A DNA stretch of 64,000 nucleotides from Thermoplasmatota archaeon. Its GTDB lineage: Archaea > Thermoplasmatota > E2 > JACPAO01 > JAHFTW01. Location: assembly GCA_041601615.1 (NCBI GenBank), contig JBFIHX010000001.1:320001-384000 (forward strand), in the 5' to 3' direction. This document shows positions 11,607-48,026 of the stretch, piece by piece (position 1 is the first letter of the stretch; every line of letters begins with the position of its first letter). The notes below the pieces were generated by a model. That model ran no database searches. It had not been told where the DNA came from and saw only the letters and a program-made list of their open reading frames with translations. Both the position numbers and the translations under genes were made by a program.

Positions 11607-11618
11607 AGGAGGCAGCGC

Positions 11619-19965: not shown

Positions 19966-20025
19966 AGGCTCATATACAGGACCTGTGTCGGCCGGCTTGT
20001 CCCCCCGGGGACGCACCAACCCACT

Positions 20026-20099
20026 GGTCCTGTGGGGTAGCTTGGATATCCTGGTGGCTTGCGGAGCCACTGACACGTGTTCGAATCGCGTCAGGACCG
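20026..20099 (+). tRNA. tRNA-Arg (anticodon GCG), CCA not encoded
   Basis: Acceptor GGTCCTG/CAGGACC plus discriminator G; anticodon arm GTGGC-TTGCGGA-GCCAC; T arm ACGTG-TTCGAAT-CGCGT. The GCG Arg anticodon is typical of archaea. Confidence 0.95.
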
Positions 20100-20100
20100 C

Positions 20101-20118
20101 TCTTTTCCCTTTGTTTTC
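20101..20118 (+). terminator. Pyrimidine/T-rich putative archaeal terminator after tRNA-Arg
   Basis: tcttttccctttgtttt immediately after the tRNA. Confidence 0.45.
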
Positions 20119-20352
20119 ATTGTCTGCGGGCAATGGGTTCGTCGCGCCTTGGAGCGTGGCTGCTGTCAAGTGCTCAGCGCGCACTTTTTCTTGGCGTTCG
20201 GGGCCGGACTTGCCTTTTGCCTCGACGGGCTCGCGGGGGCGGTGCGTGGTTGGGTGCTTTGCCTGGAACGGTGGGTTGAGGCTGTGCGTTGTCGCTGCCG
20301 CTGGACTCTTTGACCCGTGTTTCGGGGCGCTCTTGTGCCGGCGCCCTCGGGG

Positions 20353-23300
20353 TTATTGAGCAAGCCGCGCGGCTTCTTCATCCGTCATGCCTTCCAGTTT
20401 CTCCATCAGAAGCGCTTCGACGGCTTGGCTTAGCTCATAGATGGTGCGCACTTCAAAGAGCCGGGGCAGCGCGACTTCTACGTCGAAGGTTTCGCGGATG
20501 TGGGCGACCATTTTGGTGGCTATGAGGCTGTGTCCGCCGAGGTCGAAGAAGTCGTCGTGGATGCCGATGCCTTGGAAGCCGAGGATGTTTTCCCAGATTT
20601 CGACGAGTGCTTCTTCGAGCGGCTCTGTGGCGGCGGCGTAGGGCACGGGCAGATCGGGCCTGGTGTGGCCGTTGGTTGCCGGGAAGGGGCCGGTTCCGGT
20701 CTCCGGGGTTGGCGCGTCGGTTTCGTGGGTGTCTTCGCCTTTGCCGATGCCGGCTTCTTGCGCGGGGAGCCAGTAGCGCCGCTTTTCCCAGGGGTAGGTG
20801 GGTAATTGCACGCGGCGGGGGCGGGGGCCTTGGTGCACTTGTGGCCAGTTGGGTGTGGCGCCTGCGTTCCAGAGTCTTGCGAGGGCTTCGCGCAGGACGA
20901 TGGCGTCGTCGGCGTTGTCCTTGGGGTGGCCGAGGCTGGTGAGAATGGGTGCGCGTTTGGTCGCGGGGTCGAGTTGCCGTTGGGCGAGGCTGCTGAGGGT
21001 GCGGCCGGGTCCGACTTCGAGCAAGGCGAGACCGGGTTGTTCGAGCAAATGCGCGACGCCTTTGGCAAAGTCCACGGGTTGGCGCACGTGTTGGACCCAG
21101 TACATGGGGTCCTTGGCTTGCGCGTCTGTCAGCGGTGCTCCGGTTTGGTTGCTGATGATGGGAATCGTGGGTGCTTGAAGTGGGGCGCTGCGCACGATGG
21201 CTTCGAAGTCTTCGAGGGCGCCGTCCACGAGGGGCGAGTGGAAGGCGCGGGTGACGTGCAAGAGCCGGGCTTCGATGCCTTGGTTTTCGAGGCGCGCGTG
21301 CAGTTGTTCGATGCCTGCGGGGCTGCCACTGGCGACACAGGTGCCGGGGGCGTTGATAGCGGCAATGCTTGCGTCGGCTTCGAGCAGGGCTTGCACGGTT
21401 TCGGCTTCGGCGCTGATGGCGAGCATGCGGCCTTCGGGGGTGTTTTGCATGAGCCTTGCGCGGGCGGCGACGATGCGGGTGGCGTCGGCCAGTTCGAAGA
21501 CGCCTGCGAGGGTGGCTGCGACGAGTTCGCCGAGGCTGTGGCCCAGGAGGGCTCTGGGTTCGATGCCCCAGTGCATCCAAAGACGCGCCAGTGCGTATTC
21601 GACGGCAAACAGGGCGGGTTGGGTTTGTTGGGTTTCGTTGAGGCGGGCGGTGGCGGCGGCGAGGTCCGTTCCGGCCGCGGGGTAGAGCAGGGCGCTGAGG
21701 TCTTCCACGCCGTGTAGGGCAAAGTGCCCGGCGCATTCGTCGAAGTGTTCGCGGAAGGTTGGCTCGTTTTGGTAGAGCGCTTGCGCCATGTGGATGTGTT
21801 GTGCGCCTTGGCCGGGCAGCAAGAACGCCACGTCCAGTTCCTTTGCGTCGGTGCTGTGCGCGAAGGTGCGGCGGGCTGGCCCGGCGCCGCGTAGGATTTC
21901 GATGGCTTCGGTTCGGTCCTTGGCGAGGATACTGCGTCGGTGGCCGTGTCGTTTGCGACCGGTTTGGAGGGTCCAGGCGGCGTCTTCGAGTGCGGGGGCT
22001 TCTGTCTCGAGGTGGGTGGCGAGTGCTGCGACGCTAGCTTCGAGGGCACTGGCGCTGCGGGCGGAGAGTGTGATCAATTGCGGCGCGGCGCTTGGTTCGG
22101 GCCGAGGCGCAGCGGGGGGCGCTTGTTCGAGGATGACGTGGGCGTTGGTGCCGCCGATGCCGAAGCTGCTGACACCTGCGCGGCGGGGCGTGCCGGGAGC
22201 GGATGGGAACGGTACGGGCGCAGTGGGAACGTGGAAGCGCGTTTCGGTAAGGCGGAGCGCCGGGTTTGGTGTCTGGAAGTGCAAGGTGGGTGGAATCGTG
22301 CCGTGCTCCACGGCCAGGGCTGCTTTGATGAGTCCTGCGACTCCGGCGGCTGCGTCGAGGTGTCCGATGTTGGTTTTTACGGCGCCGAGTGCGATGCTGT
22401 TGGGTGGGCCGGCTCCGAGGGCGCGGTGGAGCGCGGTCACTTCGATGGGGTCGCCGACGGGGGTGCCGGTGCCGTGGGTTTCGATGTATCCAATGGTGTC
22501 GGGTTCGATGCCGGCGACAGCCAGTGCTTCGCTGACCACAGTGGATTGGCCTTCGATGCTGGGGGCAGTGTAGCCGGTTTTGGCAGCACCATCGTTGTTG
22601 GTTGCGGCTCCTTTGATGACGGCATGGATGGGGTCGCCGTCGGCCAGGGCGTCGCTGAGCCGTTTGAGGGCGACGACGCCGGTTCCGCTGCCTGCGACGG
22701 TGCCGTTTGCGCCTGCGTCAAAGGCGCGGCAGATGCTGTCTTTGCTGCCGATGTTGCCTTCTTCCAGGAAGTATCCGAAAGCCGGGTCGGGCTTGATGCT
22801 GCTTGCACCCGCAAGTGCTACGTCACATTGGTAGGACAGGAGTGATTCGATGGCTTGCACGACGGCAACAAGGCTGGTGCTGCATGCGGTGTGGATGCTG
22901 AGGCTGGGGCCGCGAAGGTCGAGCCGGTAGCTGGTTTGGGTGGCGACGAAGTCTTTTTCGTTGCTGGCGATGGCTTGGAAGGCGTTGGCGCCTTGCATGA
23001 CGCGCGGATTGGGCAGGACGTGACGCAGGTAGTAGGTGTTGATGCCGACGCCGGCGTAGACGCCCACCCGGGTCTCAGGGTCGTTGCCGTCGTGGCCGGC
23101 TCGTTGGAGTGCTTCGGCGGCGCATTCCAAAAAGAGGCGAATTTGGGGATCCATCACTTCGGCTTCGCGGGGTGTGAGTCCGAAGTAGCCGGCGTCGAGG
23201 TGTCCGATGTCGGGAATCATGCCGACGGCGGTCTCGCCGGCGCGGTCGGCTGCGGGCACGGGCCGGGGCGCGTCCTCGTACCAGTGGCGGCGAGGGGTCA

Positions 23301-23412
23301 GGGATTCGATGCCGTTGAGGAGGTTGTCAAAGAATTGTTCGGGGGATTGGGCTCCGGGGAAGCGGCAGGACATGCCGACGATGGCAATGGCTTCGGGGTC
23401 TTGGTCGGTCAT
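20353..23412 (-). CDS. Type I PKS module KS-AT-ACP (no KR/DH), ~1019 aa
   Basis: EAIAIVGMSCRFPGA, TACSTS (Cys), HGTGT, KTNIGH, AT GHSLG and RAFHS (malonyl-like), LPTYPW, ACP FFDLGGHSL. ATG 23412 with GGAGG SD and ATGA overlap with the upstream gene. Confidence 0.96.
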   Translation of the reverse strand: MTDQDPEAIAIVGMSCRFPGAQSPEQFFDNLLNGIESLTPRRHWYEDAPRPVPAADRAGETAVGMIPDIGHLDAGYFGLTPREAEVMDPQIRLFLECAAEALQRAGHDGNDPETRVGVYAGVGINTYYLRHVLPNPRVMQGANAFQAIASNEKDFVATQTSYRLDLRGPSLSIHTACSTSLVAVVQAIESLLSYQCDVALAGASSIKPDPAFGYFLEEGNIGSKDSICRAFDAGANGTVAGSGTGVVALKRLSDALADGDPIHAVIKGAATNNDGAAKTGYTAPSIEGQSTVVSEALAVAGIEPDTIGYIETHGTGTPVGDPIEVTALHRALGAGPPNSIALGAVKTNIGHLDAAAGVAGLIKAALAVEHGTIPPTLHFQTPNPALRLTETRFHVPTAPVPFPSAPGTPRRAGVSSFGIGGTNAHVILEQAPPAAPRPEPSAAPQLITLSARSASALEASVAALATHLETEAPALEDAAWTLQTGRKRHGHRRSILAKDRTEAIEILRGAGPARRTFAHSTDAKELDVAFLLPGQGAQHIHMAQALYQNEPTFREHFDECAGHFALHGVEDLSALLYPAAGTDLAAATARLNETQQTQPALFAVEYALARLWMHWGIEPRALLGHSLGELVAATLAGVFELADATRIVAARARLMQNTPEGRMLAISAEAETVQALLEADASIAAINAPGTCVASGSPAGIEQLHARLENQGIEARLLHVTRAFHSPLVDGALEDFEAIVRSAPLQAPTIPIISNQTGAPLTDAQAKDPMYWVQHVRQPVDFAKGVAHLLEQPGLALLEVGPGRTLSSLAQRQLDPATKRAPILTSLGHPKDNADDAIVLREALARLWNAGATPNWPQVHQGPRPRRVQLPTYPWEKRRYWLPAQEAGIGKGEDTHETDAPTPETGTGPFPATNGHTRPDLPVPYAAATEPLEEALVEIWENILGFQGIGIHDDFFDLGGHSLIATKMVAHIRETFDVEVALPRLFEVRTIYELSQAVEALLMEKLEGMTDEEAARLAQ

Positions 23413-25280
23413 GGGGTGTCCTCCGGGGTTCGTGTGGGTCGGCGGCGTTGCGTGTGCGCGGCGCGGCGGGCGGCTCCGCGATCGGTGCCGGCTTGGCGGG
23501 ACGGGGTGGCTGCATGGGCGGTTGGTTGTGCGCCTTGTTGCAGTTCTTGGAGTTGCTTGGAGAGCCCGGCGATGGTGGGGTGTTCGAAGAGCAGGAGGAT
23601 GTCGAGGGGGCGTCCGAGTTCCTGTTCGAGGGCTTCCTGGACGCGGGCGGCAAGCAGGGAGTGGGCCCCGAGTTCGAACACGTTGTCGTGGATGCCGGGG
23701 GTTTTGGCGAGTTCTTGTGTCCACAATTGCACGAGGAGCCGTTCGGTGGGGTTGCGGGGGCCTTCGACGAGGACCGGTTCGACTTGGACGAGGCTGCGGG
23801 GGTCGGGGAGTGCTTTGCGGTCGAGTTTGCCGTTGGGTGTCCGGGGCAGGGGGGCGAGTTCGATGAAGTGGCTGGGCACGAGAGCGGGCGGAAGTTCGGT
23901 GTGGAGTGCTTCGCGCAAGCTGCGGGCCTGTTCGGGCGCCATGGTGCTTGCGGGCCCTTCGGTGGTTTCGTCAAGGTGGACGTAGGCGATGAGTTGTTTG
24001 CTGTCTCGGGTGTCCTCGTGGGTGGCTACGGCGCAGGCGCGGACGCGGGGCACGTTTCCGAGCGCCGCTTCGATGTCGCCAAGTTCCACGCGCATGCCTC
24101 GGATTTTGACTTGTCCGTCGATGCGGCCGTGCATTTCGACGCATCCGTCGGGGCGAATGAGGCCGCGGTCGCCGGTTCGGTATAGTCGGGTTCCTGGCAA
24201 TTCGGGGTGGTCTTGGAACCGGGCGGCGGTGGCTTCGGGCATGCCGAGGTAGCCGCGTGCGAGTCCGATGCCGCTGATGCACAACTCGCCGGCCTGTCCG
24301 GGGGGCAGGACTCGGCCTTCGTCATCGATGCTGATCATCTGTACGCCGTCGATGGGTCGTCCGAGGCAGGCGGGTGTGCCGGGTTGGCAGTCGTCGGTGC
24401 TGGTCCAGATGGTGGTTTCGGTGGGGCCGTAGAGGTTGACGAAGCGGCGGCCGTTGCCCCATCGGGCGACGAGGGATTCGGGGAAGGCGTCGCCGCCGAC
24501 CATCATGGCTCGAAGGGCCGGGAGCGGCGTTTCGGGGAGGGTGGCAAGCACGCTTGGTGGAAAGAAGGCGATGTTGGCTTGGGTGTTGGCAAGATATCGG
24601 GCAAGGCCGGTGCCGCTGCGGCGCAGGTCGTCGGGGATCAGGATGAGGGTGGCGCCGGCGCTCCAGGGCAGGAAGATTTCGAAGAGGGATGCGTCCCAGG
24701 CGAGGTTGCTGTATTGGGTGCAGCGTTCGTTGGGTTGGACGGCAAATTGATTGCGTTGGATCTGGGCGCGGTGGGCGAGGCCTTCGTGTTCGACGAGGAC
24801 GCCTTTGGGTGTGCCTGTGCTGCCGCTGGTGTAGAGGACGTAGGCGAGGTTGCTTGCGCGGACGGTGGGCAGTTTGCTTGCGTCGTGGTCCGTGGGTGCG
24901 GGTTGCAGGCGGGGCGGCGCGAGGGTCTGGCCGCTGCCTTTGCCATCGATTCGCGTTGTGATGGTGCAGTGGGGTTGTGCGTCTGCGAGGATTGCGTCGC
25001 GTCGGGCGGGGGGAAGCGCTGGATCAAGGGGCAGGTAGGCGCCGCCGGCTTTCCAGATTCCGAGCATGGCGACGAGGGTTTCGGGAGTCCGGTGGGCGTC
25101 TACGGCGACGATGGCTTCCGGTTGGAGGCCTGTGGCGAGCAATTGCTGGGCGAAGATGGTGGCAGCGAGGTCCAATTGTGCGTAGGTGAGGCGCGTGGTT
25201 CCCGCTTCGAGTGCGATGGCGTCGGGCGTTCTTTGGGCGTGCTGCCTGATGAGTTCGTGGGCAAGGGGGTGCGGGTTCAT
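23409..25280 (-). CDS. Stand-alone NRPS adenylation-thiolation (A-T) didomain, ~623 aa
   Basis: YTSGSTGTPKG, WDAS, NLYGPTE, GELCISG, YRTGD, NGKLDR, T domain FELGAHSL. ATG 25280 preceded by AAGGAGGT, with ATGA overlap. Confidence 0.95.
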   Translation of the reverse strand: MNPHPLAHELIRQHAQRTPDAIALEAGTTRLTYAQLDLAATIFAQQLLATGLQPEAIVAVDAHRTPETLVAMLGIWKAGGAYLPLDPALPPARRDAILADAQPHCTITTRIDGKGSGQTLAPPRLQPAPTDHDASKLPTVRASNLAYVLYTSGSTGTPKGVLVEHEGLAHRAQIQRNQFAVQPNERCTQYSNLAWDASLFEIFLPWSAGATLILIPDDLRRSGTGLARYLANTQANIAFFPPSVLATLPETPLPALRAMMVGGDAFPESLVARWGNGRRFVNLYGPTETTIWTSTDDCQPGTPACLGRPIDGVQMISIDDEGRVLPPGQAGELCISGIGLARGYLGMPEATAARFQDHPELPGTRLYRTGDRGLIRPDGCVEMHGRIDGQVKIRGMRVELGDIEAALGNVPRVRACAVATHEDTRDSKQLIAYVHLDETTEGPASTMAPEQARSLREALHTELPPALVPSHFIELAPLPRTPNGKLDRKALPDPRSLVQVEPVLVEGPRNPTERLLVQLWTQELAKTPGIHDNVFELGAHSLLAARVQEALEQELGRPLDILLLFEHPTIAGLSKQLQELQQGAQPTAHAATPSRQAGTDRGAARRAAHTQRRRPTRTPEDTP

Positions 25281-40200: not shown

Positions 40201-43200
40201 TTCGTGCCAGGTGGTCTTCGTCGGGGGCGGGGAGTTTCGCGGTGTCCACTTTGCCGTTGGGCAGAAGCGGAATGGCGGGGAGGGTCACGAAGGCTGCCGG
40301 GACCATGTGGCTGGGCAGTTGTGCCGCAAGGTGCTGGCGAAGGAGGGCCGGGAGCTCCGGTTCGTCGGGCGTTTTGGCGACGACGTAGGCAACGAGGCGT
40401 GGTTCTGCTTGACTCCGATGGACGCTGACGACGGCGTTGGTGACTTGTTTGTGGCTGCGCAGGGCTACTTCGATTTCGCCGGGTTCGATGCGGAAGCCGC
40501 GGATTTTGACTTGGCGATCGATGCGGCCCAGGTAGTCGAGGGTGCCGTCGGGCAGCCAGCGCACGAGGTCGCCTGTGCAGTAGGTGCGGGTGCCGTCGGG
40601 AGCCGTCAGGAATTTTTCGGCGCTGAGCTCGGGCCGTCCCAGGTAGCCAGTGGCAACACCGTGGCCTTGGATGCGCAGTTCGCCGGGAACACCGGGCAGA
40701 GTGAGGTTGCCGTGGCGGTCGACGACGGTCAAGGTTGTGCCGGGTACGGCGGTTCCGATCGGGATGCGTGGCGCGTCGAGGTCTTGGGGCCGGACACGGT
40801 GCGCGGTGCTGTAGATGGTGGTCTCGGTGGGGCCGTAGCCGTTGTAGAGCTGGGCGGCGCGGGCGAGGATGGCGCGCGATAGGTCTGGTGCGAGGGGTTC
40901 GCCGCCGCTGAGTGCCCGGAGTCGCCGGTGGGATTCGGGGACTTTGGGCCAGCCGGCGTCCACGAGCATGCGCCAAGTTGCGGGGGTTGCCTGCATCAGG
41001 GTCGCGGTGGGAACGAGTGCTGCGAGGGCTTCGGAGTCGCGGGCGGTTTCGCGCGAGACAAGCGAAAGGGTTGCGCCGGTGATGAGGGGCAGCAAGAGTT
41101 CCATGGTGCCGATGTCGAAGCTGAGGGTCGTGATGCTCAGCAAGGTGTCCTCGGGGGTTACTTCGAGGCGGTTTTGCATGGCCGCGAGGAGGTTGCAGAG
41201 GGCGCCGTGGTGGATGGGGGTGCCTTTGGGTTGGCCGGTGCTGCCGCTGGTGTAGAGTACGTAGGCGGTGTCTTCGGACGCGACGGCCGCGGGCGCAAAT
41301 TCGTTGCCTACCTGCATCGTGGAGTCGGCGGCGGGCATGGGGACGCGGCGGGCGTCGCTGGCGGGCAGAACGTCGTCGAGTCCGGTGCCCATCAGGACGT
41401 GGCTGGCGCCGCTGTCTTGGAGCATGAACGCGAGTCTTTCTTTCGGGTACGCGGGGTCGAGGGGGAGGTAGGCGGCGCCGCATCGCAGGACGGCGAGGAC
41501 GGCGGCGACGAGATCCGGGCTGCGTTCGGAGCAAAGGCCCACGAGTGCACCGGGGCGGACGCCGGCTGCTTGTAGGGTGGCGGCGAGGACGGTGGCTCGC
41601 TCGTCCAATTCCTGGTAGGTCCAGGCTTCCGGCGCCATCTGGATGGCGATCTTGTCCGGGTGCTGCTGGGCTGTCTGGGCAATCCATTCGTGGACGGTGT
41701 GCGTGGGTGTCGGAAGGGCCGGTGTGGTTCCTAGGGCGAGGAGCCGGGCTTGTTCATCCTCATCCAGCAGGGCCAACTGAGCGAGGGGGGCGTCGGGAGA
41801 TGCGCAGGCGCTTTTCATCAATTGTTCCAAGTGCTGGGCCATGCGAGCGATGGTGGATTCGTCAAACAGGTCGGTGCTGTATTCGATCCAGCCCTGGAAT
41901 CCATCCGGGTCGTCGAGCATGTACAGGGACAAGTCGAATTTGCTTGTGGGGCTGACGACGAATTGAGCTTCCATGTCGAGGCCGTGCGGCTTCGGGGTTT
42001 CGTCGAGGGTGTTTTGCAGCGAAAACAGGGCCTGAAACAGGGGCGTCCGGCTTGGGTCGCGTTCGGGTTGGACCGCTTCGACGACGTGTTCGAAAGGAAC
42101 ATCTTGGTGGCTGTAGGCTTCGAGGCAGGTGCTGCGGGTGCGGGAAAGGAATTCTCGGTAGGAGGGCGCTCCCGTGAAGTCGGCGCGCAGAACGAGGGTG
42201 TTGACAAAGAATCCAATCAAGTCCTCGGTGTCTTTGTGGGTGCGGCCGGAAACGGGAGAGCCCGTGGCCAGATCATCTTGTCCTGAGTACCGGTGCAGGA
42301 GCGATTGGAAGGCGGCAAGGAGCCCCATGTAGACCGTGACGTTTTCGCTTCGACACAGGTCCCGGAACCGCTGGCTGACCGTGGCGGGCAGCCGGAACGA
42401 ATGCATGGTGCCCTGGGAGCCGTGCACGGCGGGCCTAGGGCGATCCGTGGGAAGATCGAGAGCTGGGAGGCCCGACAATTTGGTCTTCCAGTAGTTCAAG
42501 TGCGCTTCGGAGCCGGTTTTGGGTAGGTTGCGTTGCCAGGCGGCGTAGTCGGCGTATTGAATCCGGGGCTCGGGAAGGGGTGCGGTTTCCTTTTGGGTCG
42601 CGGCGGCGGTGTAGTGGGCCGCGAGTTCTTGCTGGAATCGCAGTTCGCTGCCTTCGTCGAAAGCAACGTGGTGGACGGTGACGAGTAATTCGTGGTCTTC
42701 GGCGCCGAGACGCAGCAACCGAGCCCGGAGGACGGGTCCGGTCGTGGGGTCGATGGGCTCTTGGGTTTCCTCAAGTCCGTGCTGGTTGCGGGCTGCTTGT
42801 TGCGCTTCCGGGGCCAGGTCTTGCAGATCATGCAGGGGCAAGGGTACCGAAGCGGCGGGATGGACTACCTGGACGGGACCGTTTGCACCTGCCTCGAACG
42901 TGGTGCGAAGGACACTGTGGCGGCGCACGATCGCGGCAAGTGCCTGCTCGAGTGCCGGGATCTGCAAGGGGCCGCGCATGCGGTAGGCGTTGACCATGTT
43001 GTATGCAGCATTTTTTGGGTCCAATTCGTGCAGAAACCAGAGCCGTTGCTGCGCGTAGGACAGCGGCGCTGGAGCTGCAGGGTCGATCCGTGGAATCGAA
43101 AGCAACGCCGGCTTTGGGCCCTTTTTTTGCACCCATTTTGCCAGCAATGCCGCCTTTGCCTCCGAGAGGACGGACGGGTCAGATGCGGGTTTTTTTGACA

Positions 43201-43219
43201 CTTGGTCGGTTGGGTCCAT
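25277..43219 (-). CDS. Five-module NRPS, ~5980 aa: C-A-T / C-A-T / C-A-T-E / C-A-T / C-A*-T-TE
   Basis: Five C domains (HHVAFDE, HHFAFDE, HHIAFDE, HHTLLDG, HHIAFDG), five A domains, T motifs GGHS/GGHS/GGDS/GGHS/GGDS, E domain (PLTPIQHWFF, HHLVVDGVSW), TE GWSFG. Likely start ATG 43219 (ORF open to 43303). Confidence 0.97.
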   Translation of the reverse strand: MDPTDQVSKKPASDPSVLSEAKAALLAKWVQKKGPKPALLSIPRIDPAAPAPLSYAQQRLWFLHELDPKNAAYNMVNAYRMRGPLQIPALEQALAAIVRRHSVLRTTFEAGANGPVQVVHPAASVPLPLHDLQDLAPEAQQAARNQHGLEETQEPIDPTTGPVLRARLLRLGAEDHELLVTVHHVAFDEGSELRFQQELAAHYTAAATQKETAPLPEPRIQYADYAAWQRNLPKTGSEAHLNYWKTKLSGLPALDLPTDRPRPAVHGSQGTMHSFRLPATVSQRFRDLCRSENVTVYMGLLAAFQSLLHRYSGQDDLATGSPVSGRTHKDTEDLIGFFVNTLVLRADFTGAPSYREFLSRTRSTCLEAYSHQDVPFEHVVEAVQPERDPSRTPLFQALFSLQNTLDETPKPHGLDMEAQFVVSPTSKFDLSLYMLDDPDGFQGWIEYSTDLFDESTIARMAQHLEQLMKSACASPDAPLAQLALLDEDEQARLLALGTTPALPTPTHTVHEWIAQTAQQHPDKIAIQMAPEAWTYQELDERATVLAATLQAAGVRPGALVGLCSERSPDLVAAVLAVLRCGAAYLPLDPAYPKERLAFMLQDSGASHVLMGTGLDDVLPASDARRVPMPAADSTMQVGNEFAPAAVASEDTAYVLYTSGSTGQPKGTPIHHGALCNLLAAMQNRLEVTPEDTLLSITTLSFDIGTMELLLPLITGATLSLVSRETARDSEALAALVPTATLMQATPATWRMLVDAGWPKVPESHRRLRALSGGEPLAPDLSRAILARAAQLYNGYGPTETTIYSTAHRVRPQDLDAPRIPIGTAVPGTTLTVVDRHGNLTLPGVPGELRIQGHGVATGYLGRPELSAEKFLTAPDGTRTYCTGDLVRWLPDGTLDYLGRIDRQVKIRGFRIEPGEIEVALRSHKQVTNAVVSVHRSQAEPRLVAYVVAKTPDEPELPALLRQHLAAQLPSHMVPAAFVTLPAIPLLPNGKVDTAKLPAPDEDHLARTATHEPAQTATEHALAALWKEVLGVENVGRADDFFALGGHSLLATRLVARIREDQGITLPLRHVFATPKLRDLATAIDQALAIDAGPDEPRPEPLANRTGLPLSPAQERMWFLHQMDPTSAAYNMAFAHQLTGSLDRDALGAAIQAVVTKHEALRTVVLEAEGAPVQVVLDASEAQVDLAFHDLRTLETDPQTERLHAIMDESAAQPFDLQHGPVLRATLLCRADDDHVLLLVLHHFAFDEHSHQVLLNDLGAAYTAARNGEPSMGPAELQYGDFAHWQAHQDPAPKRAALESWSQRLLAARPLDLPTTHAAPATRTFHGAHHHFKLQVPRPQLQAVSASASATPFMTLLAAFQATLHRFSGQIDFAVAAPSSGRPSEHWNNVVGMFVNTLAIPAHLDAAQTFQNHLTNVRATCSEAYAHDVAYAELASHIHAQRPHATGELAHAFFSFEHANTNMDAIPGLHMETWMVPTPTSKFDVSLFVQDTPAGIRASLEYSTDLFDAAWAQRFAASFQHLLDAAITEPNTPVGNLPLQSPAEASSLLAFNPDATPIMAVSAEAAVRNHATQTPNAVAIECEGIPCTYQALNTRVDAIAARIQARGAGPGTMVAVCMPRGFDLVASLLAVHRVGAAYVPLDPDHPASRTALVLADADIQLVLCTTSTRNALPSSCIRLAVDAPETDNDVHIAPRTDLSTDLAYVLHTSGSTGTPKGVMVGHEALRNLLGAFRAQLDVQSTDRLLAVTTISFDIAALELFLPLVSGATIVLATKKQATDPRYLAPLADNANLMQATPATWRMLVDEDWGGNPNLRALCGGEALPMDLAQSLRSRTASLWNVYGPTETTIWSTIHPVTGDEAAMPIGRPLANTRAYILDPQNQLAPVGVRGELCLAGAGVGAGYLERPELTAEKFVEDPFEPGKRMYRTGDLASWAPDGTLLFHGRMDRQLKVRGFRIEPGDIEHALRQEPGVQQAAVVAHSTAGSSARLVAYVAMEPGFDASGLRKALGKRLPQHMVPSTFVTLDELPLTPNKKIDLAALPAPESVDPATAPGYDAKLVAPRTDTEQALAELWQDLLQVSNVTVHDHFFQRGGHSLLATRLASRIRSVLAVEVPLRDLLAALTLEAQAALVDSLHEANDANDASDATGSISFQQQRMLFLHDLDPASAAYNMAVLRRIQGPLDTAVLQQALGEVIHRHPTLRTIFPRNDHGIPTPKLLAEDQIPLQIIKAEDEEDARCILQDAAHEPFDLATGPIVRATLVTLAPEHHILLIGVHHIAFDEWSEDVLLADLRLAYHARIQGAPPRFKNLPRTYAQHAAATRSRLEAGTLDDQLAYWKQQLASLPPLDLPTDHARPAAPTNHGATTPVRIPGTVLDGLRSLCNDTGATLHMGLLAAWQSLLHRYSGQEDFAVGTPIAGRDHEETHNLIGFFVNTLALRADFSDTPSFRTLLAQAKTTALNAYAHQEAPLEHVVEELGIARELDRTPLFQVAFLLQASAQTPSEPGPNELQWSHFHVPAETAKFDLTLALTDGDDAAEMDGFLEYSTDLFAPETAERMATHFTALLAAMVAEPDRAVAHASMLEAAEEAQIESWNQTKRALPEPAVLHTMFSAQAQATPDAPALIQGDAELTYAELDTASTHLAHRIIGLGIRHGDLVGISTRRSLDTTIAVLAVLKAGAAYIPLDPSYPRERLAFMIEDAAPRLVLTHTDLAERLPVDGDRLYLLDGPGSNDPAEAVALPVVAPDDLAYIIYTSGSTGQPKGVLLEHLGAANLAMSHGVLFAPGPGDRVLQFASASFDASVWEWLMALTHGAALVLPSAGTTLAGDDLAHMLQDQHITLATLPPTALATLDTNTDFPRLHTLIVAGEACAPPLVQHWSKGRRFVNAYGPTETSVCVTAHFAEDPPRRVLPIGHPLPNMEAHVLDANGRPVPIGVPGELHAGGAGLARGYHNRPELTADRFIPHPEKPGARLYRTGDLVRRLADGQLEFLGRIDHQVKIRGYRIELGEVESTLLEHPDVSEVIVMAREDVPGDKRLVAYLTGNTDAATCRQHLETRLPGHMVPSAFVVLDALPLTPNGKVDRRALPDPSASALTSSATFVAPRTPREAELAKVWQEVLRVPRVGIHDNFFELGGDSILSIQVVARAQKRGLAITTRALFDHQTVAALAAVAATEKEVQAEQGLVEGTVPLTPIQHWFFARDLPARHHFNQSVLLEVADSVPDTAIEQAIQRILSHHDALRLRFQSGANGWTQDHVSPDAASHDAYARIGLGDHSAAAADAAMLEACQEAQASLDPTTGHNVRAVLFDLGAERPRKLLIAVHHLVVDGVSWRIILEDLETLFADPEAELPPKSTAFRDWATKLVDHATHDEELQAQLPYWTQQTLDTRLPRDSDGENTTDHEQHIHVTLGRDYTEALLRDLPRASGARTEEALLAALATALAEWTGQNQVLVDMEGHGREDILDDVDTNRTVGWFTTTYPLRIDLPGTSNDATLDAVRETLRAVPNRGIGHGLLEYLGPNAARAQLAALAAPEVSFNYLGRFDDAPSDGPPAKLRMLDDAHGDDVAPVGARNRVLELNGAVTHGQLSMRFSYADSIHHEATIQRVADRFQQVLQDMAQTWKARAERQGSNEAARFPLVRAPAAQLQRALAGRTSQVADAYPLTPMQEGMLFHSLREPETGVYVEQSAFHLDGPINLDALEAAWRTLVTRHDILRTAFAWEGLDEVLQLVYHEAPLEVQRLDWSNDSAAALEARLEAFLDEDRIRGFDLAAPPLMRVALIQHAPEQHHMVWTNHHTLLDGWSLPVLLDELGQAYSAHCKDQALELPEPRPFSAFVAHLQNKDPAAAKTYWQNALAGLESPTPLPFEGGSANLATGTKSLLPGEVSTHLDTGTLQALQDLARRTRVTLSTVLQAAWAVVLGRHNDRDDVLFGATVSGRPAELDGVESMVGLFINTLPVRVRLPDNETVPNWLMGLQRQQIEMRDHEHVPLPEIQSWSPLARGQSLFESLLVFENYPWSEGSKQALPIQSVQGLSRTNFPLSLVAAPGDGLGLRLFFDTSRFDDAGIQRLMEHLTHVLEGLAHAPPTATVGDLGILGANESARLAHWGQTTTHVAPACIHDLVHARATADPKAIAVEQAGIKYTYQELQARSNAFAACLRAIGIEHGTVLALALKPSPDAVAAALGTFQAGAAYVPVDPEYPADRIAHMLQDSQAQCIITTSDLADRFTDTGADLILLDDESTWKAPAAFAPVETKPRDLAYIIYTSGSTGKPKGVLVEHQGAAALAAAQQAAFDIQPGTRVLQFASWSFDASVWEMLMALANGATLCLMPQRVAGEALQSFLVQETIHAATLPPTVLRSLEPESLPNLRVVVSAGEELAADLCNAWAHGRSMFNAYGPTESTVCASIKQCQVGDGTPTIGKPFAGARIVLLDTKKRPVPAGVAGELCIGGDCLARGYHDRPELTADRFINDPTQPDDATARLYRTGDLARWNPDGELEFLGRIDHQVKIRGHRIECGEVENALRAHPLVADAFAMALPDPAGGQRLVAYLLGDNVPAAPDLRSFLAQTLPDAMIPSAFVALEALPLTPNGKVDRKALPAPEDIARLGSNHIAPRDPVEQILASIWTRVLGATRVGVHDDFFELGGHSLTATQVVSRIRNALDMEVPLKTLFSARTLEALAHEVRRLRDDGSGLLVPPVTRFDGNDETESAPLSFSQQRLWFLDQWEPGSAVYNIPAFYRLSGILDVRALESALSETIRRHHVLRTTYTTDDEGQPTQLVGPHDRQPLEIIDLTHIPVADREQAAQAIANEESRKPFDLAHGPVYRVKLLRLARDDHWMLLGFHHIAFDGWSMSVLLHEIGVLYEAYHAGTPHSLPDPEVQYGDFARWQRQHLDETALAKQMKHWHKELAHVQSLDLPTDRPRPKVQSFRGSHRWFALPSHLSERLKTFAREEGVTLFMPLLAAFETILHRWSGQEDFAIGTPVAGRTRAETEGLLGFFVNTLVLGADVQGDPSFRELLSRVRDSCLDAYANQDVPFERLVSELHPQRDTSRSPLFQAMFALQDDAMEGNKWGGVRVGGIPVSSNASKFDITMFVADAEERLEGLVEYRSDLFDATTMDRLCNQFQALIEAVLNDPDTPLSGLSLLPAAERELVLHTWNQTSAPYPDAHCIHDLVQEQRHRTPDAPAVLHGDSTWTYAQLDDRAEAIAAHIKASGTQPGDHVAVLLERSTDTPAALLGVLKAGAVYVPIAPSAPRDRIAYILNDAHIKTVLHHAKQEALLGTWPGTRITLDSIPHEAPRVETQGNLPGPQAPAIITYTSGSDGRPKGVVLHHQAISNLAEASKTALGIHPKSRVLQYASAGDDGSILEMIGTLANGASLIIPTPSTTPLGANLHRILAEQEITSVLLPPAVLATLPPDVQLPHLERLLTRGDPLPPALARTWARKVSLANAYGLTEATVIATLAEISADHQGTTPIGRPIANNRAYVLGAHLQPVPVGIAGELCIAGTGLATDYINRPGLANERFVEAPFATGERMHRTGDIARWRPDGQLEYLGRMDDQINIRGHRIDPGEIEAALHEQAEIATAVATIREDEPGNPRLIAYIVHGDGKQRTPEALRAALARTLPDSMIPSAIVPLDAMPLTLHGRVDKTALPAPGASPQTADHHQAPRTELERTLFNIWSKVLKRDHVGIHDNFFDIGGDSILTIRVIALAEQQGIHLEPKQLFEFQNIEELANAIETGTAASNGSIVSFGQRSNNPLFLVHAAAGGAGPFAPLARMLPHHALHAFQAPGIQEGTTPNSSITELAKQYLHDMRTIQPQAPYTLGGWSFGALIAHEMTRILEADGHTVDQLVLLEPTPTFNLASHLKTKVELEDGPIGPEILQLVGLTPDQEPDRADVARRLAVRQAHIQAMLEHEPGTVQAPAILLVTDDTRAQLPTLVSSWYKHLSKAPREATIPGTHDHILEPGFVEDLAETLNAHLTPKEVA

Positions 43220-43322
43220 CCTACGACTCTGCTCGAATCCGCTGACCTCTTTAGCGGTTCGGGACGCCGCGTTCGCTGCAAATGCGCCGTGGGGCCCGGC
43301 CACAAGGCAAAAGAGCGCGCCC

Positions 43323-44267
43323 GTGTCGGGCCTGATTGGAGCTCCGGACGTGGAAGACGAACCTTTGGTTGTGGATGGTCTTGTGAAGCGCTACGGCAAA
43401 CTGGTCGCGGTGGACAACGTCTCGTTGCAAGCCAAGCGCGGCCAGGTGCTCTGCGTCCTGGGCACCAATGGCGCCGGCAAGACCACGACCTTGGAGGTTT
43501 CGCAAGGGGTTCGAAAGGCGACCGAGGGGCATGTGCGCATTTTTGGCGAGGATGCCTGGGGTGCCGCCAAGAACCTCAAGCGCCGCATGGGATTCCTTCC
43601 CCAGCAGTTTACAGGCTTTCCCATGCTGACCGTGAAGGAAAACTTGGATTACTTCAGTGCCATCTATGATGCGCGACCCGACACGGAGGGTCTGTTGGCA
43701 AGCCTTGGATTGGAGCACTGCACTCATCAGCGGTTTGGAACCTTGAGCGGGGGCACCATGCGCCGGGTGGCCATCGCGACGGCGCTTGTGAACGACCCTG
43801 AGCTGTTGTTTTTGGACGAACCGGCCGCGGGCGTAGATCCGGCCAGCCGCCGACATTTGTGGGGCATCGTGGAATCGCTTCGCAGCCGGGACCGCGCCAT
43901 TGTCTTGACGACCCACGCCATGGATGAGGCAGAGCGCCTTGCCGATGAAGTGGTGGTGATGCACAAGGGCCGCATTGTTGCCCGTGGCCCCCCGGCACAG
44001 GTTCGCTTGGAGCACGGCGGCGGCGCCATGCTTCGATTGGCGGGAGTGCCCGAGCCGATTCCTGAAATTCTTGCCCGTCGCACCGGTTTGCTCCGAGACG
44101 AGGACGACGCCTTGCTCCTGCCCCTGGCGAGTGCTGCAGAAGGTTCGTCCATCATGGCAAGCCTGGTCCAAGCCGGCGTTCCCTTCCATGAGGTTTCCAT
44201 TCGAGAGCCGAGCCTAGACGACGCCTTCGTTCGACTGGTGGGCACCGGCGCGGAGGCACGCGCATGA
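43323..44267 (+). CDS. ABC-2 type exporter ATP-binding subunit
   Basis: GTNGAGKT, LSGG, LLFLDEP, TTH. Divergent from the NRPS. Confidence 0.93.
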   Translation: MSGLIGAPDVEDEPLVVDGLVKRYGKLVAVDNVSLQAKRGQVLCVLGTNGAGKTTTLEVSQGVRKATEGHVRIFGEDAWGAAKNLKRRMGFLPQQFTGFPMLTVKENLDYFSAIYDARPDTEGLLASLGLEHCTHQRFGTLSGGTMRRVAIATALVNDPELLFLDEPAAGVDPASRRHLWGIVESLRSRDRAIVLTTHAMDEAERLADEVVVMHKGRIVARGPPAQVRLEHGGGAMLRLAGVPEPIPEILARRTGLLRDEDDALLLPLASAAEGSSIMASLVQAGVPFHEVSIREPSLDDAFVRLVGTGAEARA

Positions 44268-45337
44268 ACCGCCGTGCCGTCGGCGCCGAGTGTCAGTACA
44301 TTTTGCGCATCTGGACGCGCTCCGGTTCCCACATCGTCATGTCGGTGGTGATGCCGGTGATTCTCTTGCTTGCCCTGGGATTCTTCTTCGGCGCGTCGAG
44401 CACGCCAGCACCCCATGTGTTCGTCGAAGATCGAGCCGACTCCGAAGCATCCCATGACTTGGTGGCCAACCTCACCCAATCCAGCTTGTTTGAACTCCAA
44501 TCGGGCAAGGCCCCCGCGCAAGACACCGCCACCATTTCGTCGTGGATGCACGCCCAGAACCTAGACGCATACGTGCACATCCCCGCAGGCTACGGCAACG
44601 CCTCAGCGCCCGAAACCGTGCAGGTCTTTGTGGTGGACGCCGATTCCTACGCCGGCAAAACACTGCTTGCATCCATCCAGCACGCGCTTGCTGCGCCCAC
44701 CGAAACAACCAGTCCCCTTGCCGTGTTGCCCATTGCGCCCGCCCCCGCCTACCGCGCCATGCTGCTTCCCGGCATCATCGGCCTCTCCATCGTCACTACC
44801 GGCGTCTCCGTGGGCTTTGCCAGCATCTCCGAATTGCGCCACCATGGCCTCTTGCAGCGCCTCGCTGCCTCCCCGCTTGGAAAAGCAGAATGGCTCCTGG
44901 GCCGCATGATGGGCGTTGGCGTCGTAAGCCTCGTCTCCGTGCTCGTGCTCCTCGTCGTGAGCCGCATCGTCTTCGGTGCCACATTCACCCTTGGCATCTG
45001 GACGCTCCCGCTCGTCTTGGGAGGAACCTTGGTGTTTGCAGGCCTAGGAACCCTGTTGGGTCTCGCCGTAGAGCGCCCCGAAGCGGGAGCCGCCGTGATG
45101 AACCTCGTGCTCATGCCGCTGATTCTGCTTTCCGGCGCGTTCTTCGACCTCTCCAACAGCCCCGTCGTGCTGCAATGGATCGCCTTGGCCTCGCCCTTGA
45201 CACACCTCGTGGACGGACTACGCGCCGACATGCTCGGCATCGGCGACGCGGCAGTGCCGGCCCTCGCCATGGTCGGATTTGCACTCCTGCTCCTCGTCGG
45301 TGGAGCACGCCTCATTCGGTGGACGGAACGCCCGTAG
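44264..45337 (+). CDS. ABC-2 type exporter permease
   Basis: N-terminal TM, extracellular loop, about 5 further TMs, LSGAFF..., SPLTH. ATGA overlap with the ATPase. Confidence 0.9.
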   Translation: MNRRAVGAECQYILRIWTRSGSHIVMSVVMPVILLLALGFFFGASSTPAPHVFVEDRADSEASHDLVANLTQSSLFELQSGKAPAQDTATISSWMHAQNLDAYVHIPAGYGNASAPETVQVFVVDADSYAGKTLLASIQHALAAPTETTSPLAVLPIAPAPAYRAMLLPGIIGLSIVTTGVSVGFASISELRHHGLLQRLAASPLGKAEWLLGRMMGVGVVSLVSVLVLLVVSRIVFGATFTLGIWTLPLVLGGTLVFAGLGTLLGLAVERPEAGAAVMNLVLMPLILLSGAFFDLSNSPVVLQWIALASPLTHLVDGLRADMLGIGDAAVPALAMVGFALLLLVGGARLIRWTERP

Positions 45338-46100
45338 AATCCTGCGGCCACGGGAATACTCGAACCAAAGCCGGCTCCGGTCCATCCAAGGCCAACGCCA
45401 AACCGACGCTCGAATGACCCGGAATCGCGGGCCGCTGAAGCCGAAACGACAAGCCTGGCCCCAGCGGATCCGGCACCGCCTCGCCCTGCCACGTCGCCGT
45501 GTCCACTTGTTCCAATGCCAGAGCCAGTCCATGGCCACGCAACTTGCCGTATGCTTCCTTGGCGCTCCAAGCCTGCAAAAACGCCGAACGCCACTCCGAT
45601 GCAGACCCGGACGCAGCAAGCAATGCCTGCTCAGCCACGGAGAAAAACCGCAGCGAAACGTCCTCCACATCCTCGGCGCGTTCAGGAACCTCCACATCCA
45701 CCCCAACTTCCCGATGCCACGCCACCGCAACCACACCCAAGCCGCCCGCGTGGCTCGTGTTGAACTGCAAGGGCGAAGGCTGCAAGGGCTCCTGGTTCTC
45801 CATCAATCGAGGCTTGCCGTGGGACTTGCCACAATGGCGACAGGTTCGATCAAATTGCAGCGCCGACGGATCGCGCCGCGTGTATCCGGCAAGGATGGCT
45901 CGAAGTGCTCCGCGACGGGCGCGGAATCGGGCCGCATCCACGGGATCTCGAAATCGCTTGGCCGCGCTTCGTTCCGCATCCTCCAGGACTTCTTCCGGCA
46001 CGATTGCGGCCTCCGTATCGGTATCGAACCACCATAAATGCACGGCGCCAGCGCGAAGGTCCAGAAGATCCAACAACCCCACACTTGGCCCATGGCTCAT
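45312..46100 (-). CDS. Sfp-type 4'-phosphopantetheinyl transferase
   Basis: HGKP, FNTSH, VGVDVE, WSAKEAYGK motifs. Confidence 0.92.
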   Translation of the reverse strand: MSHGPSVGLLDLLDLRAGAVHLWWFDTDTEAAIVPEEVLEDAERSAAKRFRDPVDAARFRARRGALRAILAGYTRRDPSALQFDRTCRHCGKSHGKPRLMENQEPLQPSPLQFNTSHAGGLGVVAVAWHREVGVDVEVPERAEDVEDVSLRFFSVAEQALLAASGSASEWRSAFLQAWSAKEAYGKLRGHGLALALEQVDTATWQGEAVPDPLGPGLSFRLQRPAIPGHSSVGLALALDGPEPALVRVFPWPQDSTGVPSTE

Positions 46101-46147
46101 GTGCCTGCCGCCGCCACGGCTAAGCACACCCCCACTTCGACCCCCGG

Positions 46148-46900
46148 GTGCCCGCCGTACCAGCGCGACGCATCACGCAAATTCCTGGCTCGTTGCCGAC
46201 CCGGTTGCAGTTGTTTGTGGTTCCCCACGCGGGCGCGGGTGCGTCCGCCTACCGAGGCTTCCGGTCTCTGCTGCCCGAGGACGTGGAGCTCTGCCTCGTG
46301 CATCTGCCGGGCCGAGAAGGCCGCATCCAAGAGCCACTGCTTCGGGATATGCTGGACTTGGTCGATGATTTGCTGCCGTCCCTGCAAGCAGCCACTGCGG
46401 GCCCCTATGCGTTCTTTGGCCACAGCATGGGCGCTATACTTGCCTTCGAAGCAACCATGCGAATCTTGGCCACGGGCGGCCAAGCCCCGCGCCGCCTCTT
46501 CGTCAGTGCCCACCGCGCCCCGCACCTGTCCGATCCGCGAGGGCCACGGCACATGGCCACGGATGAACAACTCCTCGAAGAACTGGCGCGCCTTGGCGGA
46601 ACTCCCCCGGAAATCCTCGCCCACCCCGAACTGATGGCCATGGTCTTGCCCGTGTTTCGAGCCGACTTGGAAGCACTCCATTCCAGGACCAACTCCCGAC
46701 TCGAGGCCCTTCCCGTGCACATCACCGCACTTGGCGGCACCCAAGACCCCACCGTAGGCGAACCGGGACTCGCCGCTTGGCAAGCACTGGCGCCCGCACA
46801 CGGGTTCCAACTTCATTGGTTCGAAGGCGGCCATTTCTACTTCCAAGACAACCCCGCCTTCGCCTCATTCTTGACCAAGCAGCTCCAGGCCCTTTACTGA
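46148..46900 (+). CDS. Type II (editing) thioesterase
   Basis: PHAGAGAS, LPGREGR, FFGHSMGA, FRADL, GGHFY. Confidence 0.93.
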   Translation: MPAVPARRITQIPGSLPTRLQLFVVPHAGAGASAYRGFRSLLPEDVELCLVHLPGREGRIQEPLLRDMLDLVDDLLPSLQAATAGPYAFFGHSMGAILAFEATMRILATGGQAPRRLFVSAHRAPHLSDPRGPRHMATDEQLLEELARLGGTPPEILAHPELMAMVLPVFRADLEALHSRTNSRLEALPVHITALGGTQDPTVGEPGLAAWQALAPAHGFQLHWFEGGHFYFQDNPAFASFLTKQLQALY

Positions 46901-46901
46901 A

Positions 46902-48026
46902 TTAGACCGGCGACGCGACGCGAGATTTTGCAACCTTGGCCACGCGCTTGACCGCAAGGACACCCTTGGGATTAGCCAAAATCTGCCAGAGCTTGGGCTT
47001 GTCTCCCACGTGGCGTCCATGCCAAGCACCGGCCGCATAGCAAATCTCTTCGTCGTTGAGCTTCAGCATCGCCTCGTTGGAGTTGCGCAAATGGACGTAC
47101 TTACCAAGCCACTGCTTTTTCCAGCGCTTCTCGTACTCCTCAAGGCTCGTTTTTCCCTGCAAGAATCGAGCCGCAACATCGCCAGCAAGCCAACCCGAAT
47201 GCAGCCCCACCTCGAAGCCACCCTGACCCGCCGCGCCGCCCGTGGCCATGACGCGATCTTTGTACAATTGATTCGGCAACGTGTACAGCGGATCGGCGCC
47301 GACGCCACAGTACCGCGCATCCACATCCTTCCAACCCATCAAACCTGCGTCAATTTCTAGGGCACGCCGAGCCATCGCTTCGGCGCCTTCGCGGTCTCCT
47401 CGAAAAAACGTCCAGTGGATCCATTTGTCCTTGCCAAGCGGATTCAACTGCGAGCGCCCACCAGGTGCATGAGTGCCGATGGTGTTGTACACACGCCCGT
47501 CCGACTCTGGCTCCGGCGCCTCGAACTCCATGACGCCCACCCACTGCATCGCGTCGGGGTTCTGCGTCGCCTCGAAGAAACGAGACACTTGCGAACGGGC
47601 ACCGTCGGCAAAAATCAGCAACTCGGGTTGGATTTCGAGGCCCTTGGCCACAAGCCGCAGATCCGGATGCGCCTCCACGCCCTCCACTCCGGTGTGGATT
47701 GTGACGCCTTCCGCCCTTGCAAGCTCGGCAAGGTGCTGGTCAAATGCCGTCCGATCCATCAAAGACAATCCGCCATCAATGAACGGGCCCCGGCCGTCGC
47801 GGCCGCGCAGCCGCGTTCCCGCGAGTCGCCGGGTAATCGTGTGTTCCGGTTGCTCGATTTGCTTGGGCCAGAGAAAATCCATGGCCGTAATGGCAGGTGC
47901 CGCCGGCACGCCAATTTCCTTTTTTGCTTCGATCAGAACCACGCTGGCGCCGGCTCGGGCCGCCGCGATGGCCGCCGCCAGACCCGCAGCACTTGCTCCT
48001 ACGATCGCGATCTGCGTTTGCTGCAC
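46902..48026 (-). CDS. Divergent geranylgeranyl reductase-family FAD oxidoreductase
   Basis: IVGASAAGLAAA, EAKKEIGVP, DRTAFDQHLA, IFADGARS, APGG, SGWLAG, YEKRWK. Confidence 0.75.
   Translation of the reverse strand: MQQTQIAIVGASAAGLAAAIAAARAGASVVLIEAKKEIGVPAAPAITAMDFLWPKQIEQPEHTITRRLAGTRLRGRDGRGPFIDGGLSLMDRTAFDQHLAELARAEGVTIHTGVEGVEAHPDLRLVAKGLEIQPELLIFADGARSQVSRFFEATQNPDAMQWVGVMEFEAPEPESDGRVYNTIGTHAPGGRSQLNPLGKDKWIHWTFFRGDREGAEAMARRALEIDAGLMGWKDVDARYCGVGADPLYTLPNQLYKDRVMATGGAAGQGGFEVGLHSGWLAGDVAARFLQGKTSLEEYEKRWKKQWLGKYVHLRNSNEAMLKLNDEEICYAAGAWHGRHVGDKPKLWQILANPKGVLAVKRVAKVAKSRVASPV

Follow-up and report, generated by a model that had tools for sequence, protein, structure and literature searches.

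The closest described systems to the locus reported here are bacterial hybrid assembly lines in which nonribosomal peptide synthetases (NRPS) are joined to a polyketide synthase (PKS) whose ketosynthase-acyltransferase-carrier (KS-AT-carrier) module is primed with an aminoacyl unit. A locus with the same domain families, motifs and logic is found in the 64,000-nucleotide stretch of DNA analysed here (the window, G000:C1:320001-384000), part of a 436-kb contig from a marine Thermoplasmatota archaeon whose metagenome-assembled genome (G000) comprises 2.79 Mb in 30 contigs and is 93% complete and 0.28% contaminated. The island PKS has 7996 matching proteins at E<=1e-50, and its bacterial homologues come from Cyanobacteriota, Acidobacteriota, Myxococcota and others. 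Unlike the bacterial hybrid lines, however, the island has an archaeal host, reaches at most 51% identity to named bacteria among the matches listed, carries a flavoprotein of a Thermoplasmatota family, and has a non-colinear gene order in which the NRPS bearing the thioesterase (TE) comes first. A further comparison is with GrsA and TycA (adenylation-carrier-epimerisation, A-T-E; D-Phe): the third NRPS module of the island likewise contains A-T-E with a Phe-type code, but unlike those initiation modules it is internal and a condensation (C) domain precedes it.

Bacterial-type NRPS genes in archaeal hosts, methanogens and others, appear in genome surveys. In one antiSMASH survey, 581 of the 7731 clusters from 3451 archaeal genomes are of the nonribosomal peptide (NRP) type (PMC12144867), a second likewise counts archaeal NRP and polyketide clusters (PMC10105419), and the available portions of the two papers name no archaeal NRPS or PKS product. 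Compared with the archaeal NRPS genes listed in such surveys, the island is a PKS hybrid, with both junctions verified in two species and a defined insertion site. The preliminary description of this DNA had called such clusters very rare in archaea, which agrees with the phylum, where the condensation-domain family PF00668 exceeded its cut-off in 10 of 401 genomes sampled, but is overstated given the 581 clusters of the first survey (PMC12144867); such clusters are uncommon in archaea, not unheard of. Our literature search found no published description of this cluster, or of the Thermoplasmatota PfaA-like PKS treated below; supplementary tables could list this cluster or related ones. To our knowledge, no archaeal NRPS or PKS product has been characterised.

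Taken together with the mechanism and origin proposed below, the locus is best explained as a canonical hybrid NRPS-PKS island, horizontally acquired, in a Thermoplasmatota chromosome, an explanation that we consider highly probable. The machinery is canonical; the host is unusual. In what follows, G-numbers denote genomes, including the host G000, G002 (a separate species of the same genus) and G138 (a genome of family f15), P-numbers denote proteins from a 5.8-billion-protein database, and X1-X4 are sequencing runs of one study. Domains were called with Pfam and NCBIfam profiles and their cut-offs, catalytic motifs were read from the translations, and tRNAs were located with ARAGORN and Rfam.

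Megasynthase operon and accessory genes

Three minus-strand genes, encoding the NRPS, an A-T didomain and the KS-AT-carrier PKS, make up a single operon. Both of its junctions are ATGA overlaps, in which the downstream ATG overlaps the upstream TGA and is preceded by an AAGGAGG or GGAGG ribosome-binding site. The genes and their main domains are as follows.

25277..43219, minus strand: five-module NRPS, 5980 aa, C-A-T, C-A-T, C-A-T-E, C-A-T, C-A-T-TE (Pfam and motif positions)
32300..33667, minus strand: epimerisation domain of module 3 (motif HHLVVDG; the preceding T reads GGDS)
26270..27712, minus strand: module 5 A domain, its core motifs non-canonical (motif reading against G002 and five other A domains)
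25280..25972, minus strand: C-terminal thioesterase domain of the NRPS (PF00975, 93 bits; motif GWSFG)
23409..25280, minus strand: stand-alone A-T didomain, 623 aa, proposed loading module (AMP-binding 258 bits, PP-binding; TIGR01733 389 bits, cut-off 317; ATGA overlap at both ends)
20353..23412, minus strand: PKS module KS-AT-T, 1019 aa (ketoacyl-synt 215 and 140 bits, Acyl_transf_1 163, PP-binding 54)

The NRPS frame could begin at 43303 in its longest form, with 43219 as the probable ATG. It contains five A, five T and five C domains, one E and one TE, with PF00668 scoring 1074 and 934 bits in its two halves. As in modular NRPS, HHxxxD sites are present in every condensation-type domain (six sites, five in C and one in E); in C1-C3 the motif reads HHxAFDE, with Glu replacing the usual Gly after Asp. 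All seven carrier serines are intact (GGHS or GGDS in T1-T5, GAHS in the loading T and GGHS in the PKS carrier), and together with the GxSxG motif of the terminal TE they match a thiotemplate NRPS. The best PDB matches of the E domain were PvdL chains (277 bits), followed at 222-243 bits by TycB, TycA and GrsA chains (TycA and GrsA at 222-225) that we take to be epimerisation domains; chains of Txo1 and Txo2, the best matches of C1, reached only 57-61 bits with it.

In the PKS, the Cys of TACSTS together with HGTGT and NIGH provides the Cys-His-His triad of the KS, and the AT carries GHSLG, as in type I cis-AT enzymes. The AT also carries RAFHS; an xAFH motif at this place would suggest malonyl rather than methylmalonyl specificity. 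No ketoreductase (KR), dehydratase (DH) or enoylreductase (ER) domain was found in this PKS by Pfam or motif reading. The preliminary description had given the operon as NRPS, A-T and KS-AT-ACP with two ATGA overlaps; its genes, layout and overlaps were borne out by Pfam and motifs, but the PKS carrier, with its GGHSL motif, is of the peptidyl (PCP) and not the acyl (ACP) carrier protein type. Neither a stop nor a frameshift interrupts the 5980, 623 and 1019 codons of the three genes, and an open frame of 5980 codons (17.9 kb) is beyond chance. No clear archaeal TATA box was seen in a promoter reading of 43180-43420.

Beyond the start of the NRPS gene lie the accessory genes.

43323..44267, plus strand: ABC transporter ATPase, DrrA-like (ABC_tran 105 bits; TIGR01188 206 bits, below cut-off 312)
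44264..45337, plus strand: ABC-2 permease (ABC2_membrane_3, 127 bits)
45312..46127, minus strand: Sfp-type 4'-phosphopantetheinyl transferase, PPTase (ACPS 50 bits, cut-off 25; best NCBIfam match HetI, 102 bits, below cut-off 370)
46148..46900, plus strand: type II thioesterase, TEII (PF00975 150 bits, cut-off 26; motif GHSMG)
46902..48053, minus strand: FAD-dependent oxidoreductase (FAD-OR) of the geranylgeranyl reductase (GGR) superfamily, proposed tailoring enzyme and island member (TIGR02032, 60.8 bits)

That the pathway has its own Sfp-type PPTase, type II TE and ABC exporter, as first described, is supported in each case by profiles or motifs. The N-terminal pseudo-repeat of the PPTase gave an AASDHPPT_N score of 23.9 bits, under the cut-off of 27, and the TEII is a stand-alone PF00975 protein of the ~250-aa class with GHSxG. 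The FAD-OR had been listed among the archaeal flank markers as GGR-like; since it is missing from the site in relatives without the cluster, we count it as part of the island and not as a host marker. In G138 a homologue of it adjoins the PKS homologue. It does not qualify as a true GGR or digeranylgeranylglycerophospholipid (DGGGPL) reductase (TIGR02032 60.8 bits against a cut-off of 158.8; NF041160 27.8 against 780), nor as a flavin-dependent halogenase (no WxWxI(P) motif, and PF04820 not among its Pfam matches). The clusters that FAD-OR retrieved from a protein atlas were all generic FAD-oxidoreductase or GGR-family ones, drawn from both domains.

Insertion site and host flanks

The edges of the island are marked by the following features.

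17165..19453, plus strand: Hel308 helicase, host flank (Pfam DEAD, Helicase_C, Helicase_dom4_arc 93 bits)
18997..19965, plus strand: Cgi121 KEOPS subunit, host flank; longest open reading frame (ORF), true start probably later (PF08617 26.9 bits; NF011465 64.4 bits, cut-off 40)
20026..20100, plus strand: tRNA-Arg(GCG), host gene, left edge of the insertion site (ARAGORN; Rfam tRNA 51.7 bits)
20101..20352, no strand: left island edge, non-coding, between tRNA-Arg and the PKS gene
48265..48405, plus strand: 46-aa Zn-ribbon gene, host, bounding the insertion site on the right (in G002, G007, G008, G010 and G018 it separates HAD from the tRNA-Arg side)
48619..49275, plus strand: HAD hydrolase, first of the larger host genes to the right (Pfam Hydrolase)

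In three relatives that lack the cluster (G007, G008 and G010), Cgi121, tRNA-Arg(GCG), the Zn-ribbon gene and HAD are directly adjacent. This compact site places the island at ~20101-48260 (~28 kb), directly 3' of tRNA-Arg(GCG) and with FAD-OR included, and moves its right end beyond the position 46900 at which the preliminary description had closed it.

Both junctions are genuine and not chimeric. In G002 the entire cluster recurs with unchanged gene order and with its two host junctions, on four contigs that read Hel308-Cgi121-tRNA-Arg-PKS (C-terminal part); NRPS (end)-A-T-PKS (start); FAD-OR (end)-TEII-PPT-permease-ATPase-NRPS (start); and FAD-OR (start)-Zn-ribbon-HAD-SLOG-GcvT-TrkA-TrkH-Elp3. 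Between the two species, host proteins are 58-94% and cluster proteins 51-88% identical. A single contig of run X1, possibly the source of the assembly, spans 41227-52999 with zero differences, and X1 word depth is 27-29 in the NRPS and in the host flank alike. The right junction is also bridged in other samples of the same study, by contigs covering 46890-48456 (X2) and 45654-48230 (X3), the X2-X4 contigs including bins of low or zero word depth.

The host is a Thermoplasmatota archaeon, and the synteny of the flanks is common to genomes of the same genus and the same family. Hel308 is present in 30 of 31 relatives at E<=1e-50 and matches the archaeal domain-4 model; tRNA-Arg(GCG) follows Cgi121 in the loci of five of eight relatives, and no Rfam family other than tRNA was found in the window. 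On the right, the order HAD-SLOG-GcvT-TrkA-TrkH-Elp3 is common to relatives, Elp3 scores 620 bits (cut-off 350), and LonB carries the archaeal LID model. A 167-aa cytidylyltransferase-like ORF (60191-60694, minus strand) is compatible with NadM; a CinA/PncC-type domain protein (59694-60182, minus strand) adjoins it, and the pair resembles NAD salvage. The archaeal character of the flanks noted at the outset is thus upheld, as are the individual markers (Hel308, Cgi121, tRNA-Arg(GCG), Elp3, LonB and the NadM-compatible ORF) with the exception of the GGR-like gene. PolD DP2 is encoded elsewhere in G000; in the control set, its family matched three euryarchaeal genomes only.

The island was also compared in GC and tetranucleotide composition with 108 genome windows of 23 kb. 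Its GC content (64.8%) is above that of all 108 (mean 61.7, maximum 64.7), and only three of them lie farther from the genome mean in tetranucleotide composition. The plus strand has a GC skew of +0.2 to +0.34 over 20001-44000, against about -0.11 to -0.24 for host plus-strand genes, so that C is roughly two times as frequent in the coding strand of the island as in the coding strand of host genes.

At the same site, a genome of another genus (G018; L097, G018:C2) has a different insert of ~7 kb between tRNA-Arg and the Zn-ribbon gene, at locus positions 7568-14528. The tRNA-Arg/Zn-ribbon site is therefore suggested to be an insertion hot spot. In G001, of the same genus as the host (L095, L096), a C-terminal PKS fragment of 54-59% identity lies on a contig without the Hel308 neighbourhood, while on the Hel308 contig the Cgi121 match is split and tRNA-Arg is missing; the cluster may exist in this genome in another version or at another location.

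Adenylation pockets and proposed pathway

Pocket codes were placed by a motif rule and compared with known specificity codes. The rule takes Stachelhaus positions 235, 236 and 239 from FDxS. Position 278 is found three residues ahead of a conserved P-S/T, and 299 and 301 precede the acid of GGE by four and two residues. The x of NxYGPTE gives 322, the third and fourth residues past its E give 330 and 331, and the K of GKxD gives 517. The pocket of the loading A domain reads DAFFMGLIWK, and Asp235 indicates an alpha-amino acid substrate. A1 (DIMQLGGIYK) would accept a Gly-like substrate, and A2 (DILQLGVIWK) agrees at nine of ten positions with what we take to be the Gly code. A3 (DAWTIAAVCK) shares nine of ten positions with the presumed Phe code of GrsA, and this Phe-type code followed by an E domain predicts D-Phe. 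The substrate of A4 (DAWTVAAVCK) would be aromatic, probably Phe. A5 reads DGLLLRAVIR.

Comparison with G002 shows that the pockets of A1, A2 and A3 are identical at 10/10 positions each and that of the loading A domain at 9/10, while the whole domains are 60-76% identical; A4 is only partly covered in G002. Identical pockets amid diverged domains indicate purifying selection on substrate choice and argue for function. A1-A4 and the loading A domain are canonical at core motifs A3, A4, A5, A7, A8 and A10.

Domain order, motifs and gene fusions in homologues were used to derive a mechanism. The NRPS would act last because a TE closes it. The didomain is placed before the PKS because the homologue P0002 (61% identity) is a single A-T-KS-AT-T protein, and the PKS before a C domain because two others (P0042 and P0057) end in KS-AT-T-C. 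In the proposed sequence of events, the Sfp-type PPTase would prime the seven carrier domains and the stand-alone A-T would load an alpha-amino acid. The KS would then accept the loaded residue and the AT supply malonate for a single Claisen condensation, giving an unreduced gamma-amino-beta-ketoacyl thioester. C1 of the NRPS would hand this starter on, after which the additions would be a Gly-like residue by module 1, Gly by module 2, Phe (converted to D-Phe) by module 3, an aromatic residue such as Phe by module 4, and a fifth residue by module 5. The TE would release the chain, possibly as a macrolactam via the free amine of the starter; FAD-OR may tailor the product, TEII may edit stalled carriers, and the DrrAB-like ABC pair would export it.

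Origin of the island and alternative readings

Within the family of the host, PF00668 was matched at E<=0.001 in one of 18 genomes, G002 only; the other genomes of the phylum with this family include G138 and several small genomes of family f10. Three of the latter (G350:C51, G320:C1 and G306:C1; 1.5-1.7 Mb, two of them single-contig) have frames of 5225-7364 aa with condensation domains, and the island PKS found no match in two of them, G320 and G350. Named bacterial homologues of the island PKS are 38-51% identical to it, a ceiling that holds among the matches listed. Closer homologues are few: the nearest outside one is P0002 at 61%, followed by P0003-P0008 at 55-58% and G138:C66 at 53-55%. 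A scan for metagenome contigs, which used generic patterns, gave 51% as the highest identity among the matches listed and did not recover the contigs of P0002 and P0006.

A tree of the AT region was built from 84 rows, leaving out L083 (a duplicate of G138:C66) and alignments shorter than 380 residues or with internal stops. In this tree G000 and G002 group with support 100 and are joined by G138 with support 82. A set of 11 rows (support 94) comprises these three, P0002-P0008 and one long-branched Myxococcota genome, and is nested among bacteria.

The FAD-OR has only 43 matches at E<=1e-20 in the 5.8-billion-protein database, of which the three with NCBI organism names are all Thermoplasmatota, and it is found in six of nine f15 genomes. 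Six cluster-linked copies fall within one 17-row clade (support 100): those of G000, G002 and G138 and three paired with P0002, P0006 and P0008, a pairing deduced from identical longest-contig sizes, which are 49,164 bp for P0002 with P0124 and 83,473 bp for P0006 with P0130. This clade is sister to, and nested among, f15 and NCBI-labelled Thermoplasmatota copies that were not seen beside clusters.

These patterns are most simply explained by a two-step origin, in which the megasynthase type descends from bacteria, and the cluster family then gained an archaeal flavoprotein and passed into this genus from another Thermoplasmatota lineage. The island would have arrived in an ancestor shared by two or more species of the genus, and its cluster family is also seen in another Thermoplasmatota family and on metagenome contigs without taxonomy. 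Given its nearest relatives (G138 and proteins without taxonomy) and a flavoprotein of a Thermoplasmatota family, an archaeal proximate source appears likelier than a bacterium, and an archaeon-to-archaeon last transfer is more likely than a direct bacterial donor. The earlier view that the cluster was probably acquired from bacteria would thus hold for the deep type of the megasynthases but not for the last step, as judged from G138, the metagenome relatives and the FAD-OR tree.

A direct and recent last transfer from a bacterium into the archaeal genus would agree with several observations: the great majority of NRPS and PKS enzymes of this kind are bacterial, the archaeal set in the AT tree is surrounded by bacterial branches (Acidobacteriota, Myxococcota, Gemmatimonadota and others), and the GC and tetranucleotide composition of the island are outliers. 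Nevertheless, the low identity to named bacteria, the Thermoplasmatota assignment of both the closest named relative and the flavoprotein, and a divergence between the G000 and G002 copies that makes the event old render this improbable. Still less probable is a cluster inherited from the ancestor of the whole family and lost repeatedly. The conservation of a type I PKS of another kind across the order would make carrier-protein chemistry native to these archaea, but PF00668 had no match in 17 of the 18 family genomes searched, the site is compact in G007, G008 and G010, and the composition of the island is outlying. That bacterial DNA was joined to an archaeal contig during assembly or binning is scarcely credible: the genome is indeed metagenome-assembled and the island its most GC-rich stretch, but both junctions recur in the separate species G002, contigs of other samples bridge 46900 and reach 48456, X1 depth is even across NRPS and host flank, and the 436-kb contig has archaeal genes on both sides. 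A tRNA-targeted integrative element was also considered and set aside, as the adjacency to a tRNA was its only feature present and neither an integrase nor repeats of the tRNA 3' end were found.

Returning to an acquired and functional island, a number of observations weigh against this explanation or parts of it. No integrase is present among the island genes, all of which are accounted for, and a comparison of the 11-mers of 19960-20360 with 43000-49500 for att or direct repeats gave chance matches only, none tRNA-derived. In the AT tree, support of 82 for the three archaeal rows is not decisive, and the archaeal assignment of G138 rests on binning, its cluster contigs being 4-9 kb long and the genome 4% contaminated. 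P0002-P0008 are without taxonomy, and the only label among them, on P0005 (57%), is 'uncultured bacterium', which also counts towards a direct bacterial donor. Five f15 homologues of FAD-OR lie in neighbourhoods free of NRPS and PKS genes (within fetched stretches of 11-20 kb, ~1-11 kb on either side), so the link between FAD-OR and the pathway is not universal. An MbtH-like gene (PF03621) was not found in the 93% complete G000 genome. Finally, the core motifs of A5 (SGSDGRPKG, GDDG, RGD, GLTE, HRTGD, INIRG and GRVD) contain seven non-canonical positions, including Arg for the A10 Lys, and its pocket differs from that of G002 at four of ten positions; the A domain of module 5 may thus be inactive or altered in G000, and the line could stall there. 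The pathway had been described as looking self-sufficient and uninterrupted, which remains true of the gene set and the open frames, but is qualified by these seven positions.

The same A5 substitutions, at positions where the G002 orthologue and the five other G000 A domains are all canonical, suggest that the pathway may be decaying in G000, its product no longer made, while perhaps still working in the sister species. A5 (55.7%, the lowest of the A domains) and the NRPS TE (44.3%) are moreover the least conserved domains between the two species. Against decay stand frames free of stops and frameshifts, and the seven carrier serines and all other catalytic motifs, which are intact; in addition, T5 could be loaded in trans, and the A10 Lys-to-Arg change would be conservative. 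On balance we consider decay rather unlikely, although less so than a direct bacterial transfer.

The same genome encodes a second, different type I PKS outside the island, on contig C2 (G000:C2, L103:2431-11982, minus strand). This PfaA-like, multi-ACP enzyme of the polyunsaturated fatty acid (PUFA) synthase type has 3183 aa with KS, AT, a second KS-like stretch, four ACPs, KR, DH and a C-terminal PPTase; its KS and AT are 44% and 37% identical to those of the island PKS, and genes for biotin carboxylase, carboxyltransferase and BioY lie on its flanks. The enzyme is conserved throughout the order: a search with the island PKS matched at least 28 of 30 other genomes of the order, most listed matches being long PfaA-like frames, and the matches listed included none of the 10 genomes taken from the class's other families.

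Elsewhere in the window, a single 1093-aa ORF (12162-15443, plus strand) combines CheB methylesterase, CheR methyltransferase, PAS and histidine kinase domains; a response regulator is encoded at 11619-12137 (minus strand). A MeaB GTPase domain occupies residues 412-673 of a 711-aa ORF (6268-8403, plus strand), for which a long N-terminal extension or an over-long call is possible, and the large subunit of methylmalonyl-CoA mutase (57938-59590, minus strand) is encoded 50 kb from it.

Being complete, junction-verified in two species and mapped to its insertion site, with conserved pockets, the island is a concrete candidate for heterologous expression. It also offers a tractable case of bacterial-type secondary metabolism settling in archaea, co-inherited with a flavoprotein of an archaeal gene family, in a host lineage that already runs a conserved type I PKS with acyl-CoA carboxylase subunit genes alongside. 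A bolder reading, to which we give somewhat less than even chances, is that these clusters form a mobile hybrid family resident in Thermoplasmatota, assembled in archaea from megasynthases of bacterial type and the recruited archaeal flavoprotein, and still making a D-Phe keto-peptide. If this were true, the D-Phe keto-peptide would be the first native archaeal natural product to come from an assembly line.

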